A stretch of 64,000 nt of DNA, taken from Gammaproteobacteria bacterium (GTDB taxonomy: Bacteria; Pseudomonadota; Gammaproteobacteria; SURF-13). Below are positions 8,412 through 58,490 of the stretch, one piece after another; the first letter of the stretch is position 1, and every line of letters begins with the position of its first letter. The stretch spans positions 10,428 through 74,427 of the forward strand of contig QZKM01000048.1 of the NCBI GenBank assembly GCA_003599485.1, read 5' to 3'. The notes under the pieces were generated by a model, which was not told the origin of the DNA, searched no databases, and worked only from the letters and a program-made list of their open reading frames with translations. The translations under genes were made by a program, and so were the position numbers.

Positions 8412-11400
8412 GCATTCTTTCCGGTAGGTTCAGGCGCCGTCTCTGTCGGTCGTATTCGATCTGTAGCGTGGCGGAGCGCTTGCGGTCGCTGATGTCGACA
8501 AAACACGCACCGCCGATGAATGGCTCCAGGGTCATCACGGACTTCAGCGGTGTGGCAACGATCATCTGGAAACCGAAGTTGGTGAAAATTTTCATCGCCA
8601 GTTCGGTGAACTCGTTGTCTGCCTTGCCGAAGGCTTCATCCAGCACGACCGGCGCATACAGCGGCAACCCGCTGTCGCTGCCACCCAACTGGTAGCGCAG
8701 TGCGGCCGCGAGGCAGGTGGTGGCGAGTTTTTCGCGCTGGCCGCCGGACTTTCCCGCACCCGTGCGGTAAATTTCCACCTCCTGGCCGGCCTTGTCGTAT
8801 TCGCGTCCCATGAACTCCACGTGCTGGCGCACATCGAGGACCAGTTCCCGCCAGCGCTGATGCTCGCTTTCCGCCGAACCCAGCCTGTTCACCAGTTCGC
8901 GCAGGATACCAAAACGCGCCTCCGCACCCTCCGCGTCTGTAAGCCATGCGTTGTCCAGCACCTGTTTTACCTGTTCGCGAAATACCCTGACCTCCGGCAG
9001 ATAGCGGTCGTTGACGACAATCTCCAGGTGCGTGCCGTGACCGAACTCTGCCTGGGATAGACTCTCGTTCACTAGGTCCATGCGCTCACGTATCTCCTTG
9101 CGGGCCTTGGCAAGGTGGGTATTGAGCGCCGCCAGGTTCTCCGTACTCTGCTCCTTGAGCATGTCGAAAAAACGCTGCTCGTGCTTCGGCAGCCCATCGT
9201 GCTCCAGCCGCTCCAGCAGGACCATGAAATCCGGCGCCGAGGCCAAGGTCTCGTCCAGATCGCCGGCGTGTTCTCTCCATTCTCCGAGAAAACGGCTGAA
9301 GCATTTCTCGATCACCTGCTTCAAACTGCCCTGCTCGGTTTGCAGGCCTTCGATTTCCTTGCCAATTCCCCGCTCCACCGCGGTTCGTTGGCTTTCCAGA
9401 TTCTTGAGGGTGACCGGCTTGTCAATCGCCTCGAAGCGCGCCTTAAGCGCCTGCTGTTGATAATCAGTGAGCACGGCGGACTGCAGTTGCAGCCGCAACT
9501 CATCCAGTTCGTGACCATACTGATCGATTTGCTTTTTAACAACTATGCGTTCGGCACGCATGGCATTCAAGGCATCTTCAGCTTCCTTGAGCTTTGTCCG
9601 CTGTTGCATGATACGCTCGCCCAATTCCTTCAAAACACGGTTTCCGTCACTGAACTCGGCCAGCATCTTGTCTAGCGCATGAATACGATCCAGCATGCTG
9701 GCTACGTCGATCTCCTGCCATTGCAGATTGGTCAGAGTCTGGCAGGCCATGAGCCGCTCTTCCCGTTTCTCGCGGTCGGCCTCCAGTTGTTCTAGCTCTC
9801 GTCTGACCCGGCCGATCTCATCGGCCAATTGCTGCGCCCGCTCTTGATAAAGTCGCCGCTTTTCGCGGTTGTCGAAACCCAAAACCCACCCATGCGGGTC
9901 ATCGATGGGTCGCCGGTCGTCTTTCTCGTGCCGGGACCTGCCATGACGTACTTGACCTTCGCGCGTGACGGCCCGTTCGGTCTGGCGAAAATCCCTCATG
10001 TTGTCGACACAGGCGTAATCGAAACGGCGCCTGAACTCTGCGTCGAGCCAAGGCCGATAGGCGTTGTCCTTGAACAACAGCTTGTTGACCAGCGACCAAC
10101 TTTGCACCGGTTGCGTTGTGGATGTAATCGTGTCGGCCGCAACCCGGTGGTAAACCAAGCGTTGATTCAGGCGGGTCTCGTTAACGTAACTGGAGACGCC
10201 CGCGTAATGGCGCTCCTCGACGAGGAGCGAGAGCGCGAACCCTCGCAACACCCGCTCCACCGCGCCCTGCCACTCGGCGGCTTCCTTCCTGACCTCAATC
10301 AGTTCGCCGGCAAACGGCAAATCGCTTTCTGGCAAGCCGAGGGCGGTAGTCAGTTGCCGGCGCAGGTCCAGCATGTGGGCCGGAATATTGGAGGGCTGGC
10401 GCTGCATGGCCTCGACTTCCCGGCGCGTCTCGGAAAAACTCTTCTCCGCCTCGCGCTGGCGGACGTTCAGCGCATCGCGCTGCTCATCGGCGCGCCGGTT
10501 TGCCTCTCTGCGGCCCTCCAATATTCCCCGCGCCTCGGCGGCGAGCTCTGCAAACCCCTGTGGTGTATCCGGAAGCGAGCGGCCGAGCGTCTTACAGGCC
10601 GTTTCCGCTTGCCCGCGTTTGGCCATCCGGTCGTCCCGTTGCTGCTCGGCGGATTTCCTGTCCCGTTCCAGCTCCTGGATGCGCACGCCGCCTTGCTCCC
10701 GATGCTCCGCTTCCAGCAGGGCAAGCTGTGTCTTGTTATTGTCCAGCATCTCCTGCTGCCGGCGCTCCTCCCCCTCCAGCCCCTGATCCTGAGTCCGCAG
10801 GCGCTCGATTTCCTCGTCCAGCAGCTTCACCTTGCAACGGTCGCGGTAGGCATCGACACCGGCCCGCAACTCCTCCAGCCGGACCAGTTGCTCGCTATTC
10901 GATAGGAATTTTCGATGGTCGTCCCGCGCCGGACGCAGGGTATTCACCTGCCTGCGGGCCGTCACGACGGCTTGGTGGGCCGCGTCCAGTTCGGCAAATT
11001 CCTTCACCATGCGCTCAGTGACCTCGAAGGTGGGCGGCCGGTCGAGCATGTAGTCGCGAAGAAAGCTGTTAAGGTCACCGAGGTTCTTGGCCGACTGCGT
11101 CTTGTGCAGGAGCTTGAGCGCCATCTCCGACTCGATACCGAGCAGGCGGCGAAAGTGTTCGCCGTAAGCGCTGAACGTTTCGAAGTGGCGCACGTCCGAC
11201 AATTTGTGCTTGAGGTTACGCAGGTCCAAATCGAACTCCTTGAGTTCCGTCGCGATGTTGAAGGAACGCTCCGAAACCATGAAATGGTGCCGCACATCCG
11301 CAGCGCGGCTGGCGCTGCCGCGCAACCAGAGAATCTGCACAAGGCTCGCGCTCTGGCCAGCAAGGTTGGCGTACTCGACCGCCAGCGCCGACCAGGTAGT

Positions 11401-39405: not shown

Positions 39406-40731
39406 GTGAGCAGCACTGCTGAGGACGGCGCGGCATCTTCACCGGGCGCACGCGCGCCACGGCGCGAAATCTTCGCCTGGGCGATGTATGATTTCGCCAA
39501 CTCCGGCTATACCACCGTAGTCCTTACCGCCATCTACAGCGCCTATTTCGTCGGCGTGGTAGCGCAGGCGAGTGAGCCCGGCAACGGCGCCGCCACGCTG
39601 CTCTGGACGCTGGCCATGGGCATCAGCAATTTCCTGGTGCTGGCAAGCGCGCCGGTGCTTGGCGCCGTCGCCGATCACCGCGCCTGCAAGAAACCCTTTT
39701 TGCTGTTCACTACCGTGGGTTGCGTCCTGTTTACCGCCTTGCTGGGACTGGCCGGCCCGGGCGACATCGCCGCCGCCTTTTTGCTGGTGGCGCTGGCGAG
39801 CCTCATGTTCGGCAGCGGCGAAAATCTCATCGCGTCGTTCCTGCCCGAAATCGCCCGCCCGGAAGACATGGGGCGCGTCTCCGGCTATGGCTGGGCGCTC
39901 GGCTACCTCGGCGGACTGCTGGTGCTGGGTGTGTGTTTGGCGTGGATTGCCTGGGCGGAGGGGCGAGGGCAGGGCGCGTCCCAGTTTGTGCCGGTGACAC
40001 TATGGATCACCGCCGGCGCTTTCGCGCTCGCCACACTCCCCACGTTTCTGTGGCTGCGCGAGCGCGCCGTGCCTGCGCCGCTGCTGGAGGGCGAGAGCTA
40101 TTTCCGCGCCGGGCTCGCGCGCGTGCGCCACACCCTCGCGGAGGCGCGCCGCTTCCGTGACCTGTTCCGCTTCCTCATCACGCTCGCCGTTTACTATTGC
40201 GGCATCAGCACCGTCATCGTACTGGCGGCGGTGTACGCGCAACAGGCGATGGGTTTCAGCACCCGGGAAACCGTCGTGCTGATTCTGGTGGTCAACGTCA
40301 CGGCGGCGGCGGGCGCATTCCTGTTCGGTCATCTGCAGGATCGCTTCGGCTCGGTACGCACGCTCGCCGCCACCCTGCTGGTGTGGATCGCGGCGCTACT
40401 GCTCGCCTATTTCATCGAGTCCCGCGCGGGCTTCTGGACGGCGGCGAACCTGATCGGCCTGGCGCTGGGCTCCAGCCAGTCCGCAGGCCGCGCCCTGATC
40501 GGCCGGTTCTCCCCGCCCGAACGCTGCGCCGAATTCTTCGGCCTGTGGGGCCTGGCCGGCAAACTCGCCGCCATCGTCGGCCCGGTAAGCTACGGCCTCA
40601 TCACCTGGCTCTCCCGCGGCAACCACCGCCTGGCATTGCTCGCCACCGCGATATTCTTCATCGCCGGGCTGCTGCTCCTCCTCACCGTGAACGAACAGCG
40701 CGGCCGCCGCGCGGCTCTGGCTGAAGGCTGA
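39406..40731 (+). CDS. MFS transporter (UMF1/Atg22-like)
   Basis: 441 aa, about 12 TM segments. Its last about 15 nt plus a following REP are duplicated 1.2 kb downstream. Confidence 0.8.
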   Translation: MSSTAEDGAASSPGARAPRREIFAWAMYDFANSGYTTVVLTAIYSAYFVGVVAQASEPGNGAATLLWTLAMGISNFLVLASAPVLGAVADHRACKKPFLLFTTVGCVLFTALLGLAGPGDIAAAFLLVALASLMFGSGENLIASFLPEIARPEDMGRVSGYGWALGYLGGLLVLGVCLAWIAWAEGRGQGASQFVPVTLWITAGAFALATLPTFLWLRERAVPAPLLEGESYFRAGLARVRHTLAEARRFRDLFRFLITLAVYYCGISTVIVLAAVYAQQAMGFSTRETVVLILVVNVTAAAGAFLFGHLQDRFGSVRTLAATLLVWIAALLLAYFIESRAGFWTAANLIGLALGSSQSAGRALIGRFSPPERCAEFFGLWGLAGKLAAIVGPVSYGLITWLSRGNHRLALLATAIFFIAGLLLLLTVNEQRGRRAALAEG

Positions 40732-40734
40732 ACC

Positions 40735-40783
40735 AGCATGCGTAGGGTGAAATGCCCTTTGGTTACTGCGCCCTACGCTTGCT
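40735..40783. repeat. REP-like palindromic element (copy a)
   Basis: agcatgcgtagggtgaaatgccctttggttactgcgccctacgcttgct. Inverted, diverged relative of copy b. Identical copy at 41972..42020. Confidence 0.8.
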
Positions 40784-41952: not shown

Positions 41953-42020
41953 GCTGGCTGAAGGCTGAACCAGCATGCGTAGGGTGAAATGCCCTTTGGT
42001 TACTGCGCCCTACGCTTGCT
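41953..42020. repeat. 68-bp direct repeat (copy 2) = MFS gene 3' end + REP copy d
   Basis: ggctggctgaaggctgaaccagcatgcgtagggtgaaatgccctttggttactgcgccctacgcttgct matches 40716..40783 nearly perfectly. Confidence 0.85.
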
Positions 42021-53249: not shown

Positions 53250-54620
53250 TTAGGGCTGCTCCTCTCCCCGCACGCGCAGTATCACCCCGCCAGGCTCACG
53301 CGCCACCGTCTCCATCTCGCCCGCCGTCTCGGCCAGGTTGCGCGCAAGCGCCTTGTCAATCTGGTAGGGATTAAAGATCAAGTGCGTGATGCCCTGTATC
53401 TGCTTTAAAAAGCTCTCGGCATCCTGCGCCGGCGGCGGCAGCGGCAGCACGGCGCGCCTGGCTGCCAGCATGGTGCGCGCGGGCCACTGGCTGGCGGCAC
53501 TGAACGGGCTTTCCGCATCATGCGCCTCCTCGGCCAGGCGCGCGATCAGCCGGTCTTCCGGGCTGAGCGCGCCCGCCTTGTTAAACGCGTAATGTTGCTT
53601 GTTCGCGCCCATGAATAATAACGAGATCAGCATAATCGCCAGCAGCGTCAGGCCGCGTTGCGCGAGGAAGCCGCCGCGCCATTTTTGGTTGAGCGCGATG
53701 AGTTGCGCGCCGCCGTAATAAAGCAACAAGGTCAATGCAAACGTGGCCCATACGGCATCCGCCGCCAACGCGCCCAGCGTCGCAGCGGCGAGCAGCATCT
53801 GTCCCATATAATCGCGCATGAAACGGCGCAGATTCACCGCGACGATCAGCACCAGCAGCGCGCCTGCGAGCCACCCCGGCCAGGAACTGTACGTTCCCAG
53901 CGCATTGCCCAATGCCTCAACGGGATTGCTCCACCAGGCGAGATTGCTCCAGCCTTGGCGCAGGAGCAGCGCGAACAGCACCGCCAGGGCGACACCGGTA
54001 TAAATGTGCCGTTGCTGGCGCGCGTCCAGCGGCTCTCGATACCAGCGCCAAACCAGCGCCGCGGGGCAGGCGAGACCCGCCGGGTGCAGCGTCACGGCGA
54101 TGGCGGCCAGCAGCAACTGTAGAAAATACTTGCCTCCCAGGGGGCGCGGCGCGGCGCGGTAAGCGTCATCCAGCCACACGCCCGCTCCAAACACAAACAG
54201 CAGGTACACCCCCGCGCCCAGGCCGTCTATTTGATGCAACATGAACGGCGCGATCAGCAGCAGGCCGCTGCCGATCAGGGCGGTCTCGGCCGTGAATTGA
54301 CGCGCGCTCCAGCGGTAAAACAGCAGCACGGCGGAAAAACCAAGCAGCACGGTGAACACCTTGGCCGCCGTCACGCTGCCCGGCCAATAAATTCCCAGCG
54401 GGATGTACAACAGGGCGCGAAAATCGGGCACGCCGAACACTACGATGGGGTTGGCCACGTCGCCCGCGATGGACCAGTTGAGCAGCAGCGCCTGCGCGGC
54501 GTTTTCGTCCAGCCCATAGGCGTCAAATCGCAGCGTGAGCAGCACCAATCCACCCCAGAGCAGAAACAACAGGAGTGTCCAGTAGCGCACCGGAACGCGC
54601 GCAGTAAGATAATCGAACAT
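53250..54620 (-). CDS. hypothetical polytopic membrane protein (possible GT39/ArnT-like glycosyltransferase)
   Basis: 456 aa, many TM segments; no decisive motif recognised. Confidence 0.45.
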   Translation of the reverse strand: MFDYLTARVPVRYWTLLLFLLWGGLVLLTLRFDAYGLDENAAQALLLNWSIAGDVANPIVVFGVPDFRALLYIPLGIYWPGSVTAAKVFTVLLGFSAVLLFYRWSARQFTAETALIGSGLLLIAPFMLHQIDGLGAGVYLLFVFGAGVWLDDAYRAAPRPLGGKYFLQLLLAAIAVTLHPAGLACPAALVWRWYREPLDARQQRHIYTGVALAVLFALLLRQGWSNLAWWSNPVEALGNALGTYSSWPGWLAGALLVLIVAVNLRRFMRDYMGQMLLAAATLGALAADAVWATFALTLLLYYGGAQLIALNQKWRGGFLAQRGLTLLAIMLISLLFMGANKQHYAFNKAGALSPEDRLIARLAEEAHDAESPFSAASQWPARTMLAARRAVLPLPPPAQDAESFLKQIQGITHLIFNPYQIDKALARNLAETAGEMETVAREPGGVILRVRGEEQP

Positions 54621-54660
54621 GAATTTCCCCGGAGCGCCTTAAGGCGGATTGGGTTAAACT

Positions 54661-54806
54661 TTACTCAGGAGTCACAAGGCTACACTACTTAATGATGTGA
54701 CTCCTGAGTAACGATCCTGTTTTATCTACCCCACCCCGTCCCACCCCACACAAGGGGCGGGGGACGTGGCGGGAATGTGGCCTTACTTACTGACTTATGC
54801 GTAACC
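54661..54806 (+). promoter_or_regulatory. conserved structured leader element, copy 1 (16-bp perfect hairpin + C-rich/G-rich block + conserved ATG)
   Basis: Hairpin ttactcaggagtcaca/tgtgactcctgagtaa. Block ACACAAGGGGCGGGGGACGTGGCGGGAA. CTGACTTATG starts a 27-aa ORF that ends 11 nt before bepA. Paralogous to 56447..56598. Confidence 0.6.
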
Positions 54807-54888
54807 AGTATAAAGCAAGCCCCTGGCGCAGGCGAGCGACGCGGGAACCGATCGGCCCGCAACATAGTCTTACGTTATAACACAAACC

Positions 54889-56328
54889 ATGCGTTATCCC
54901 GCCTTGCTACTCCTGCTCAGCCTGCTGTGCGCGTTCGCGCAGGCTGACACGCGCCTCAATCTTGACCTGCCCGACATCGGTGAAAGCTCCGCCAGCGTGC
55001 TTTCCGCGGAGCAGGACCGGCGCATGGGCGAGGCCTTCATGCGCGAGCTGCGCCAACAACTCACCATTCTGGACGACGCGGAGGTCACCGGCTATGTGCA
55101 GGCGCTGGGTTATCGCGTTGCCTCCAACAGCGACGGCCAGGCGCGCGATTACCACTTCTTCGTGGTGGATAACCCCAACATCAACGCCTTCGCCGGGCCG
55201 GGCGGCTACATCGGCGTGAACAGCGGGCTGATTCTCGCCGCCGAATCCGAAAGCGAGCTGGCCGCGGTAATCGCGCATGAAATCGCACACGTGACCCAGC
55301 GCCACCTGGCGCGCGCCTTCGAAGCGGCGGACAAGCTCAGTGCACCCGCCGCCGCCGCATTCATCGCCAGCATCCTGATCGGCGCCCAGAACAGCGAACT
55401 GGGACAGGCGGCGCTCGCCGCCACCCAGGCCAGCGCTGCGCAAGCCCAGATCAATTTCACCCGCTCCAATGAAGAGGAGGCCGACCGCATCGGCATCCAG
55501 ACCTTGGCGCGCGCCGGTTTCGACCCGCGCGCCATGCCGGTGTTTTTCGAGCGTTTGCAGCAGGGCACACGCTACTCCGGCTCCAACCTGCCGGAATTTC
55601 TGCGCACTCATCCGGTCACTACCGCGCGCATCGCCGACACGCGTAATCGCGCCGAGCAATACCCTTACCGCCAGGTCGGCGACAGCCTCAACTACCATCT
55701 GGTGCGCGCCAAGCTGCGCGTGCTGAGGGAGAAGAATCCTAAGGAGGCGCTGAAACGTTTTGCCGCGGCGGTAAAACAAAATCCGGATCGCGCCGCGGAG
55801 CACTACGGCTACGCCTGGGCGTTGCTGCGCAACGGCAATCTCCCGCAGGCGCGCGAGGAAGCGCGCGCCCTGCTGGACAAGACTCCGGATCAGCCCGCCT
55901 ACGTACTGCTGCTGGCCGAGATCGAGCTCGCCGGTCAAGGCACGGCGCAGGCGGTAAGCCTCTACCGTGACGCGCTCGATCTCTATCCCGGCCACCATGC
56001 GCTGACCTTGGGTTACGCACGTGCCCTGCTGCAAACAGGACAGGCGCGTGAGGCGGCGGCGCTGCTGGAAAAGCACCAGCGCATGCGGAGCAATAATGAC
56101 GCCGGAATCTACAAGCTGCTGGCCGAGGCTCGCGGCGCGGCGGGACTGACCGGCGAGGCGCATCAAGCCCTGGCCGAGTATTACCATTTAAACGGCGACA
56201 CGGCCTCCGCGATAGAGCAGCTCAAGATCGCCTCGCGCCTCAAGGAGCATGACTTCTATCAGGGCTCTATCATCGAAGCGCGGCTCAAGGAGCTGGAAGC
56301 ACAGTTGGCGCTGGAGACTAAACACTGA
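54889..56328 (+). CDS. bepA: periplasmic M48-family metalloprotease with TPR repeats (BepA/YfgC-like)
   Basis: Signal peptide, HEIAH zinc motif, C-terminal TPR region. Confidence 0.8.
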   Translation: MRYPALLLLLSLLCAFAQADTRLNLDLPDIGESSASVLSAEQDRRMGEAFMRELRQQLTILDDAEVTGYVQALGYRVASNSDGQARDYHFFVVDNPNINAFAGPGGYIGVNSGLILAAESESELAAVIAHEIAHVTQRHLARAFEAADKLSAPAAAAFIASILIGAQNSELGQAALAATQASAAQAQINFTRSNEEEADRIGIQTLARAGFDPRAMPVFFERLQQGTRYSGSNLPEFLRTHPVTTARIADTRNRAEQYPYRQVGDSLNYHLVRAKLRVLREKNPKEALKRFAAAVKQNPDRAAEHYGYAWALLRNGNLPQAREEARALLDKTPDQPAYVLLLAEIELAGQGTAQAVSLYRDALDLYPGHHALTLGYARALLQTGQAREAAALLEKHQRMRSNNDAGIYKLLAEARGAAGLTGEAHQALAEYYHLNGDTASAIEQLKIASRLKEHDFYQGSIIEARLKELEAQLALETKH

Positions 56329-56446
56329 TAACGCACATGGTTTTTCGTCACTTTATCAATGGCCAAAAAAACACCAATGTGATATACTTGTTTTTGTTTT
56401 ATTGCACATCCCGCTACACAGGCACACGGTAAATCACGATGTCCGT

Positions 56447-56598
56447 TAATCAGGAACCACAAAGTAAAACCACCATACTTATGCAGTGGCTCCTGATTAA
56501 CGAGCCAGTTTTACCTACCCCCACCCTGTCCCGTCCCCTACACAAGGGGCGGGAACGTGGCGGGAAGTGCAGCCTTGCTTGCTGACTTATGAGTAAGC
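56447..56598 (+). promoter_or_regulatory. conserved structured leader element, copy 2
   Basis: Hairpin ttaatcaggaaccaca/tggctcctgattaa with compensatory changes relative to copy 1. Block ACACAAGGGGCGGGAACGTGGCGGGAA. The conserved CTGACTTATG here is the soxY start codon. Confidence 0.6.
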
Positions 56599-57053
56599 TA
56601 AGCCGCCGCTTTCTGCTCAAAGGCCTATTGGGGGCCGCCATCGCGGCGCTCGCCACGGCGCTGCCGCGCTTTGCATTTGGCGCATGGCCGGAGCAGGCGT
56701 TCCGCACCAAAAATGTTCCGGACACCCTGCAAGCCCTGTTCGGCACGGCAAGCGTCATCACCGACACCAAGGGCATTACGCTCAGCGTCACCGACCTGGC
56801 GGAAAATGGAGCGGTGGTGCCGGTCACGGTGACCAGCACGCTGCCCGCCGTGGACAGCATCGCCCTCATGGTGGACAAAAATCCCAGCACGCTGGCGGCC
56901 CAGTTCCTGCTGGCGCCCGGCCTCAAACCGTTCATCAAAACCAACATCAAGATGGCGGAGACCTCGCGCGTGATCGCGCTGGTCAGGTCGGAAGGAAAAC
57001 TGTACAGCACCAACAAAAAGGTCAAGGTCACGCTTAACGGTTGCAGCAGTTAG
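56589..57053 (+). CDS. soxY: thiosulfate-oxidation carrier protein SoxY-like (Tat signal)
   Basis: Twin-arginine motif SRRFLLKG. SoxY-like beta-sandwich body. The C-terminus reads NGCSS rather than the canonical GGCGG. Confidence 0.7.
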   Translation: MSKLSRRFLLKGLLGAAIAALATALPRFAFGAWPEQAFRTKNVPDTLQALFGTASVITDTKGITLSVTDLAENGAVVPVTVTSTLPAVDSIALMVDKNPSTLAAQFLLAPGLKPFIKTNIKMAETSRVIALVRSEGKLYSTNKKVKVTLNGCSS

Positions 57054-57440: not shown

Positions 57441-58490
57441 ATGCACATCGGGCCGTATAAATTAAGCAACAATCTGATTCTGGCGCCCATGGCGGGCGTC
57501 ACCGACCGTCCGTTCCGCCAGTTGTGCAAGCAACTCGGCGCGGGGATGGCGGTGTCGGAGATGGTATCCTCCAATTCACTGTTGTGGGGCAGCGCAAAGA
57601 CCCGGCGCCGCGCCAACCACGAGGGCGAGACCGAGCCGCGCATCATACAGATCGCCGGGGCCGATCCCGGACTCATGGCCGAAGCGGCGAAATACAATGT
57701 GGACAACGGCGCGCAAATCATAGATATCAACATGGGCTGCCCGGCAAAGAAAGTGTGCAACGTGATGGCGGGTTCGGCCTTGTTGCAGGACGAGCCGCTG
57801 GTGGCGCGCATCCTGGAGGCGGTGGTGCGCGCGGTGAAGGTCCCGGTTACGCTGAAAATCCGCACCGGCTGGAGCCGTGAGCACCGCAACGGCGTCACCG
57901 TGGCGCGCATTGCCGAGCAGTGCGGTATCCAGGCGCTGGCCGTGCACGGGCGCACGCGCGCCTGCGCCTTCGGCGGCGAGGCCGAATACGACACCATCGC
58001 GGCGATCAAGACCGAAGTAAAGATTCCGGTGATCGCCAACGGCGACATCCGTACACCGGAACAGGCAAAGGCCGTGCTCGACTACACGCGCGCCGACGGG
58101 ATCATGATCGGACGCGCCGCGCAGGGCCGCCCGTGGCTGTTCCGCGCCATCCAGCACTATCTGGAAACCGGCCGGCTCATGCCGGAGCCGGGCGCGGCTG
58201 AAATCCGCGCCATACTCACGGGCCACATGCACAATCTGTACGCCTTTTACGGCGAGCATACCGGCGTGATGATGGCGCGCAAACACCTGTCCTGGTACAG
58301 CAAGGGACAAAGCGGCAGCGCGCAATTCCGGCTGGCCATCAACGCAGCCGCCAGCAGCGCGCAGCAATTGGCTCTCACCCGGCAATTTTTCGACGCACAA
58401 GGACGTGCTAGTGTCGCGGGAGGCAGGACGCCGGGAGCGACCGATGGCCTGCTGCACTCCGGGCGCGGCATCGAGGAGCTCGCGGCGTGA
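57441..58490 (+). CDS. dusB: tRNA-dihydrouridine synthase B
   Basis: DUS TIM-barrel motifs (LAPMAGVTD, catalytic Cys in NMGCP). Followed by fis as in E. coli. The C-terminus is extended by the dispersed mini-repeat. Confidence 0.9.
   Translation: MHIGPYKLSNNLILAPMAGVTDRPFRQLCKQLGAGMAVSEMVSSNSLLWGSAKTRRRANHEGETEPRIIQIAGADPGLMAEAAKYNVDNGAQIIDINMGCPAKKVCNVMAGSALLQDEPLVARILEAVVRAVKVPVTLKIRTGWSREHRNGVTVARIAEQCGIQALAVHGRTRACAFGGEAEYDTIAAIKTEVKIPVIANGDIRTPEQAKAVLDYTRADGIMIGRAAQGRPWLFRAIQHYLETGRLMPEPGAAEIRAILTGHMHNLYAFYGEHTGVMMARKHLSWYSKGQSGSAQFRLAINAAASSAQQLALTRQFFDAQGRASVAGGRTPGATDGLLHSGRGIEELAA
58401..58443 (+). repeat. in-frame palindromic mini-insert, copy 2 (dusB C-terminus)
   Basis: ggacgtgctagtGTCGCgggaggcaggacgccgggagCGACcg; encodes RASVAGGRTPGAT. 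Confidence 0.8.

Follow-up and report, generated by a model that had tools for sequence, protein, structure and literature searches.

Bacterial MITEs are short (<200 bp) elements with inverted-repeat ends, TA termini and a target duplication, which form stable stem-loops and can become fused to ORFs (PMC2229807). The best comparisons for the locus described here are RUP of Streptococcus pneumoniae (attributed to IS630-Spn1), Correia/NEMIS of Neisseria and ERIC/IRU of enterobacteria, all of them non-coding repeats of 100-200 bp with inverted-repeat ends, a 5'-TA-3' at both ends and a target duplication, which are mostly intergenic, are co-transcribed with their neighbours, have predicted stem-loops in the transcript and are occasionally fused to an ORF (PMC2229807). 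RUP inserts at TA, and the RUP/IS630-Spn1 pair is the precedent for duplication of this dinucleotide by IS630-type transposition (PMC2229807). A further type of repeat, represented by REP2 of Neisseria and the IR of Borrelia, is ~120-150 bp long, has two stem-loops near its 5' side and an ATG at its 3' end, and often lies directly upstream of ORFs, to which it is sometimes fused (PMC3184786).

The 64-kb window analysed here (by "window" we mean the whole stretch of DNA, 64,000 nucleotides) carries two copies of a ~140-145 bp sequence, which very probably are two independent insertions of a non-autonomous DNA transposon (MITE). They belong to an undescribed MITE family, a well-known kind of element, in uncultured, apparently sulfur-oxidising gammaproteobacteria of 53-62% G+C; the repeat sequence was contained in no paper of the searched literature. 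All four features of MITEs are present, namely a small size without transposase, inverted-repeat ends, a target duplication, and dispersed copies that are present in some genomes and absent from others. The element shares with RUP, Correia/NEMIS and ERIC/IRU the properties listed above, and like RUP it inserts at TA. It differs from them in having its end repeat three times and in using the wider target T-TA-A; furthermore, its strongest hairpin is formed by the left end and an internal copy of that end, whereas in Correia or ERIC it is formed by the left and the right end.

The preliminary description of this DNA had reported two paralogous copies of common architecture at 54661..54806 and 56447..56598. 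Both are real, lie there on the + strand and align over their whole length, with boundaries that had to be corrected to 54662..54803 (copy 1) and 56447..56595 (copy 2), including the TA at each end; the elements proper span 54664-54801 and 56449-56593. The two are ~76% identical to each other (the MAFFT mean column identity of the flank-extended pair is 74%), and a profile built from family members matches them with nhmmer E-values of 4.6e-36 and 5.1e-42 for copies 1 and 2, respectively. They have in common two hairpins, a terminal CTGACTTATGNGTA and the blocks ACACAAGGGGCGGG, ACGTGGCGGGAA, GTTTTAYCTACCCC and GCCTTRCTTRCTGACTTATG, which are found nowhere else in the window; the last of these, a 20-mer, had no chance match in 100 shuffles. 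One copy stands on either side of the gene of a bepA-like M48/TPR protease (54889..56328, + strand). Copy 1 occupies the spacer that separates bepA from a divergently oriented 456-aa gene (53250-54620, minus strand), with its right end 85 nt 5' of bepA. Copy 2 interrupts the ancestral reading frame of soxY, after its fourth codon position.

The element is bounded by terminal inverted repeats of 13 bp, TACTCAGGAGTCA on the left and, read as the reverse complement, TACTCATAAGTCA on the right, which match at 11/13 positions and are present at the ends of every full copy. A third copy of the repeat, inverted, lies ~35 nt inside the left end and matches the left repeat at 13/13 positions. Together with the flanking dinucleotide the ends read TA-CTCAGGAGTCAC (left) and TA-CTCATAAGTCAG (right, reverse complement). 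The 13-mer TACTCAKRAGTCA occurs three times per element (left on +, internal and right on -); six matches were counted in the window against 1.07 expected, a number reached by 0/100 shuffles. Hairpin 1 is the left repeat paired with the internal inverted copy of itself, and hairpin 2 is a G+C-rich inverted repeat whose sequence is unrelated to that of hairpin 1. In its canonical form the element is 138-147 bp long and holds no transposase gene, only tiny accidental ORFs.

In copy 1, the left repeat TACTCAGGAGTCAC (54662..54675, +), whose bases 1-2 are the duplicated TA, is the left arm of hairpin 1, and the internal inverted copy (54697..54710, -; GTGACTCCTGAGTA on +) is its right arm. Hairpin 2 (54729..54775, +) consists of a C-rich arm, the loop ACACAA and a G-rich arm, and the right repeat (54790..54803, -; CTGACTTATGCGTA on +) holds an ATG at 54797. 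Copy 2 has the variant TAATCAGGAACCAC as its left repeat (56447..56460, +), followed by the internal inverted copy (56486..56499, -; GTGGCTCCTGATTA on +), hairpin 2 (56518..56566, +) and the right repeat (56582..56595, -; CTGACTTATGAGTA on +). Each copy folds into an AT-rich hairpin of 15-16 bp and a C-rich/G-rich hairpin. On the + strand the two copies score z = -4.4 and -4.8, and an equally good fold was reached by 0/200 shuffles. The minus strand folds slightly better, because the A.C mismatches of the + strand become G.U wobbles on it. The compensatory changes noted earlier at two stem positions of hairpin 1 are present in copy 2, C-G to A-T and T-A to C-G (alignment columns 5/55 and 13/47), both of them in its internal repeat; copy 2 also has a single uncompensated A.C mismatch.

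Both sites are empty in relatives. The window comes from a JGI metagenome contig that is in NCBI as a MAG too, and it was compared to three syntenic relatives (L002, L003 and L004; BepA 84-87% identical); the element is absent from the bepA site in L002 and L003 and from the soxY site in L002 and L004, with a gene order in L002 that is identical to that of the window. The spacer before bepA measures 131 nt in L002 and 130 nt in L003 vs 268 nt in the window, and the spacer before soxY 58 nt in L002 and 82 nt in L004 vs 260 nt in the window. By blastn, the sequences that flank the element in the window abut in the relatives, at 1427/1429 of L003 and 9909/9914 of L002 for site 1 and at 2060/2077 of L004 for site 2, which is likewise empty in L002. 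Since the flanks adjoin in relatives without the element, the two copies are lineage-specific insertions and not conserved leaders. As a separate observation, the region upstream of bepA is non-syntenic in L004 (GCA_038924225, 1-528, compared to window 53250-54888): in place of the divergent 456-aa gene there is other sequence, with a copy of a second repeat of ~51 nt (see below) in it. The L004 contig is just 2.3 kb long, and this difference could be a rearrangement or an assembly junction at the repeat.

Across 19 copies the flanks read T/TA...TA/A in most, and the removal of the element together with one TA restores a sensible sequence at 3/3 checkable sites; at site 1, L003 deviates from it by 1 nt. 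At this site the restored sequence is ..aaacTTTAAcc..; L002 has the same TTTAA and L003 has TTAA, with one T fewer, so that the reconstruction requires an L002-type allele or a 1-nt indel. At site 2 the removal gives ATG TCC GTT AAG CTA AGC CGC CGC in frame, which restores the reading MSVKLSRRFLLKG (MSVKLSRR); its counterparts in L002 and L004, MSINPARRSLLKG and MPLMNPTRRSLLKG, respectively, are of this type as well. At the third site, the dapC end of L005, the restored protein ends in ..IRDLMRSL followed by a stop. Duplications of TTAA, TAA or TTA were also considered and none of them fits both junctions, whereas TA alone does.

Insertion at TA with duplication of this dinucleotide is the signature of IS630/Tc1-mariner transposition. 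A transposase of the IS630/Tc1-mariner type is the probable mobiliser of the family, an assignment whose whole basis is the TA duplication and the short inverted repeats. On this model, a transposase encoded elsewhere would bind the repeats, the element would enter T-TA-A sites at their central TA and duplicate this dinucleotide, and it would then be co-transcribed passively with the neighbouring genes. As regards an autonomous parent, no pair of repeats 0.6-2.5 kb apart was present in 374 kb of fetched loci, and no transposase ORF with matching repeats was found in these loci, in plasmids or in viral contigs. The ORFs beside the aberrant copies in L043 and L033 are ordinary genes.

A profile search of the 374 kb of fetched loci brought the family to ~25 copies and fragments altogether, most of them outside the window. 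The core of hairpin 2, searched as the pattern ACACAAGGGGCGGG N0-3 ACGTGGCGGGAA in 185,579 GTDB species genomes, had one match, between dapC and dapD in the MAG E1_concoct.bin.78, and none in the metagenome collection, from which the source contig itself is also absent; with zero metagenome matches and one GTDB match, this core is therefore specific to a small subfamily. When metagenomes were scanned with the arms of hairpin 1 as the anchor, 38 loci were obtained, ~20 of which are true members, located on contigs of two metagenome datasets, Ga0184616 and JACXTT01. Three patterns had no match in viral contigs, and a blastn search with the family consensus found none in the plasmid collection. 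About 17 of the 38 loci of the hairpin 1 scan were excluded as a different repeat, ..CAGAATTCAGGACTCAGGAGTCAGAAT.., from soil metagenomes.

This soil or other-metagenome repeat has the 11-nt hairpin arms CTCAGGAGTCA/TGACTCCTGAG in common with the MITE and is otherwise unrelated to it. It is a hairpin repeat built of reiterated CTGAGTC, CTGAATT and CAGAAT units (e.g., CAGAATTCAGGACTCAGGAGTCAGAAT...ATTCTGACTCCTGAGTCCTGAGTTCTG), and it was recognised in L007, L009, L011, L015, L027, L028, L036, L038 and L040-L042.

The members of the family vary in size, from a ~70-bp remnant through forms of 107 bp (with hairpin 2 deleted), 149 bp (canonical) and 173 bp to copies of 212-424 bp, in which other repeats are nested; this is the usual decay series of a MITE. 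The 173-bp form has an additional small hairpin, CCGGATCAAGTCCGG. One subfamily has the 5' arm of hairpin 2 enlarged by a 24-nt insert, CCGGATCAAGTCCGGGGCAGGCT, that folds into a small hairpin by itself (L039 3448-3620, L030 3660-3832, L023 1273-1446, L025 939-1106 and L008), and the copies of L029, L014 and L043 contain another nested insert, CCTTTTGCGCTGTGC...GGCCAGGATGGCCTGG... In L016 (953-1100, minus strand) the right end is followed within 12 nt by a partial second right-end-like sequence, ..CTGACCTGTGAGTA-CATGACATGAGTAA.., with which the start of moaC (ATG AGT AAA TTG, MSKLTH) coincides; this second end may have arisen by partial tandem duplication of the transposon end, or else it resembles the native moaC start by chance.

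Other repeats were observed in and near the window. The second repeat mentioned above, of ~51 nt (..GTGCTAGTGTCGCGGGAGGCAGGAYGCCGGGAGCGACCG..), lies within coding sequence and in frame, at 2255-2307 and 58391-58443 of the window. The source contig has a third copy a short way outside the window (L001 20234-20266, minus strand), and related sequence is present in L033 (~9040-9075), L004 (~265-320) and L008. In DusB the repeat adds precisely 17 aa, DAQGRASVAGGRTPGAT, compared to L002, and it is also found in the N-terminal region of a GDSL/TesA-like protein (..SASVAGGRMPGATA..) and, as GSGGRMPGAT, in a periplasmic binding protein of L033. This repeat looks like an RPE-style intragenic mobile insert; in other places its sequence belongs to a longer element with inverted repeats, which is nested in the MITE. 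Window positions 40717-40783 and 41954-42020 hold 67 nt that are 100% identical, and related 38-nt units lie at 40735, 41319, 41908 and 41972; they form a cluster of REP-like palindromic units, GCGTAGGG..(AAT)..GCGCCCTACGC, ~590 nt apart.

The consequences of the insertion are clearest at soxY. The gene, as now read, extends from 56589 to 57053 on the + strand with its Tat signal MSKLSRRFLLKG intact, and its start is the ATG of the right repeat of copy 2 (56589-56591), as the preliminary description had it. The ancestral start, inferred from L004 and L002, is at 56439: the insertion cut soxY after ATG TCC GT-TA, and the ATG of the right repeat is in frame with the rest of the gene. From the ancestral ATG, a uORF of 48 codons (56439..56585, +) now runs through the element and ends at the TGA 56583-56585, also within the right repeat, 3 nt before the new ATG. 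A sigma-70-like site (TGGCCA, 17 nt, TATACT, with an upstream TG; 56360..56388, +) is located 5' of the insertion, is conserved in sequence in L002 and L004, and is the probable native promoter of soxYZ. Because this site lies upstream of the insertion, the element is presumably within the soxY transcript, and the stop-CTT-start spacing suggests that the SoxY ATG may be reached by termination-reinitiation; this ATG has no Shine-Dalgarno sequence in front of it. Furthermore, the TGG at 56487-56489 of copy 2 is TGA in the 13 other aligned copies, where this TGA of the internal repeat is the sole earlier stop in the uORF frame, and the opposite arm of hairpin 1 has a T-to-C change that matches the TGG. 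The change from TGA to TGG in copy 2 could be an adaptation, a subfamily trait or chance.

The earlier suggestion of a MITE-like element that donates expression signals to genes is thus right as to the MITE, and the donation is limited to the start codon of soxY, an accident of the landing site. At bepA the conserved ATG of copy 1 (54797) does open the 27-aa ORF that had been described, which spans 54797-54880 and ends 8 nt, not 11, before the bepA ATG at 54889; we treat this ORF as accidental because it consists mostly of native spacer, which in L003 contains no ATG.

Rickettsia palindromic elements (RPEs) are translated as part of the host protein. Copy 2 resembles them, and other MITEs that sit in frame within genes, in lying inside the original soxY frame, and the copies of L005, L006b and L023 overlap the 3' ends of ORFs that stay open. 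Unlike RPEs, the element is outside the mature SoxY and splits the gene into a uORF and a restarted ORF, and otherwise it just replaces the last few codons of the upstream gene.

Besides insertion without further function, we considered that the mobile element has been co-opted as a portable 5' leader or start-codon cassette, like Neisseria REP2 or the Borrelia IR, so that the orientation with the hairpins and the terminal ATG facing the gene was kept and mRNA stability or translation was influenced; we regard this as unlikely. The architecture is indeed REP2-like (120-150 bp, with two stem-loops inside, a 3'-terminal ATG and a position directly upstream of ORFs; PMC3184786). Within tandem gene pairs, the only informative ones, 10 copies are co-oriented with transcription vs 1-2 anti-oriented (one-sided binomial p ~0.006-0.02), in a small sample whose genes were assigned by longest-ORF heuristics rather than by a gene caller. 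This bias is suggestive, and it is the only feature not to be expected if the element were purely neutral; orientation-dependent effects on mRNA are described for known repeats (PMC2229807, PMC3184786). In the co-oriented copies, <=85 nt separate the right end from the start of the gene that follows. Five copies have a downstream ORF that is open from the right-repeat ATG, and for soxY this ATG is the sole usable start. In copy 2, moreover, the element's single in-frame TGA is the TGG described above, with the opposite arm of hairpin 1 changed to match. One could imagine from these data that the family is preferentially retained in the transcribed orientation just upstream of starts, with the TGA-CTT-ATG-AGT-A of the right repeat as a stop-restart module and the TGG of copy 2 as a post-insertion adaptation, a proposal that we consider unlikely.

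Several results speak against co-option. Searches of the element revealed neither a sigma-70-like promoter nor an intrinsic terminator, neither a sigma-54 -24/-12 motif nor an IHF consensus was seen in it by eye, and the family consensus has no Shine-Dalgarno or purine-rich tract within 15 nt upstream of the right-repeat ATG. The true start, in the cases that allow a judgement, is 3' of the ATG in the repeat: ProS begins with MRASQLLL..., which we take to match the N-terminus of E. coli ProS, and in L033 the signal peptide starts at a later Met. Copies are also found at the 3' ends of genes and in reversed orientation (L029, L031 and L035), and the orientation sample is, as said, small. REP2 brings along a promoter and an RBS and is without terminal inverted repeats, whereas the element described here has inverted repeats and a TA duplication, and neither promoter nor RBS was detected in it; for this reason it is not a member of REP2. 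Unlike in REP2, the ATG is demonstrably needed at 1 of ~18 loci.

Far less probable is that the copies are a structured cis-regulatory RNA leader, riboswitch-like or protein-binding, whose fold controls bepA and soxYZ; a cis-regulatory RNA or leader was the first candidate of the preliminary description, which argued for selection on structure. Both copies are upstream of, and co-oriented with, a gene, both fold far better than shuffles, and copy 2 has the two compensated pairs in hairpin 1. However, the element is missing at the same positions in close relatives, the other copies adjoin unrelated genes, and hairpin 1 is already explained by the repeated transposon end. Rfam gave no match in the whole window at gathering thresholds, and none even at E <= 5 over 54600-56650. 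Across 14 full copies, the RNAalifold covariation term is +0.64 kcal/mol and three pairs are changed on both sides, vs 1.5 +/- 1.0 in column shuffles, of which 70/500 reach three. Both compensated pairs of hairpin 1 come from copy 2 of the window alone. The search pattern fixed 11 nt per arm of hairpin 1 in 11/14 aligned sequences, so that only hairpin 2 is an unbiased test of covariation; its lower stem varies on one side (ACGTGG, ACATAG, ACGCAG, ACTCAG) with the opposite side unmatched. Selection on RNA structure is not supported, the family-wide covariation being within the control range.

The neighbouring genes give the same picture. By Pfam, the genes at the right end of other copies encode an M3 oligopeptidase, PolX (polX), a radical-SAM enzyme, MoaC (moaC), HisB (hisB), ProS (proS), FBPase (fbp) and HtpG (htpG); DapD (dapD), named by eye from its N-terminal sequence, follows the copy of L005, and a multicopper oxidase stands beside one copy in the opposite orientation. 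The family has no association with a gene class, its neighbours being functionally unrelated housekeeping genes, and the link to periplasmic and sulfur-oxidation genes that the two window copies had seemed to indicate does not extend to the others.

Still more improbable is a repeat that transposes as a single strand or is of REP type (IS200/IS605-derived, or a REP/BIME mobilised by RAYT), with the hairpins as recognition signals. The two strong hairpins and the slightly better fold of the minus strand would agree with it, and an early reading of the junctions, from the two copies and the empty site of L003, was compatible with insertion without duplication. IS200/IS605 elements and REPs have neither inverted-repeat ends nor target duplications. 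The further copies resolve the ends as terminal inverted repeats with TA on both sides, the GTAG-type REP head is absent from the element, and the sequences of hairpins 1 and 2 are unrelated, as those of the left-end and right-end hairpins in IS200/IS605 are not; an IS200/IS605-like insertion without duplication was abandoned once TA-flanked inverted repeats had been seen in a third copy and in 20 more. A one-off local duplication of the spacer around bepA, without mobility, could be imagined because the 64-kb window has no copies other than these two, which share their orientation and are separated by 1.8 kb, and it is hardly credible, because copies occur at unrelated loci in another MAG and on contigs of two other metagenome datasets, the window copies are just ~76% identical mutually while each resembles copies elsewhere, and both have clean TA-flanked boundaries.

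The reading as two MITE insertions bears on how this region should be annotated: both "conserved leaders" should be masked as mobile repeats and not listed as regulatory RNA, and the two copies are no evidence for co-regulation of bepA and soxYZ. The soxY gene is a clean natural example of a transposon end that replaces a start codon and leaves the Tat signal intact. If the stop-restart proposal were true, a gene hit within its first codons would regain a start codon, with coupling to the native ribosome-binding site, and the TGG of copy 2 would open the uORF, letting ribosomes reach the new soxY start. In general, the orientation bias and the uORF-restart arrangement may tell how genes survive insertions at their 5' ends.
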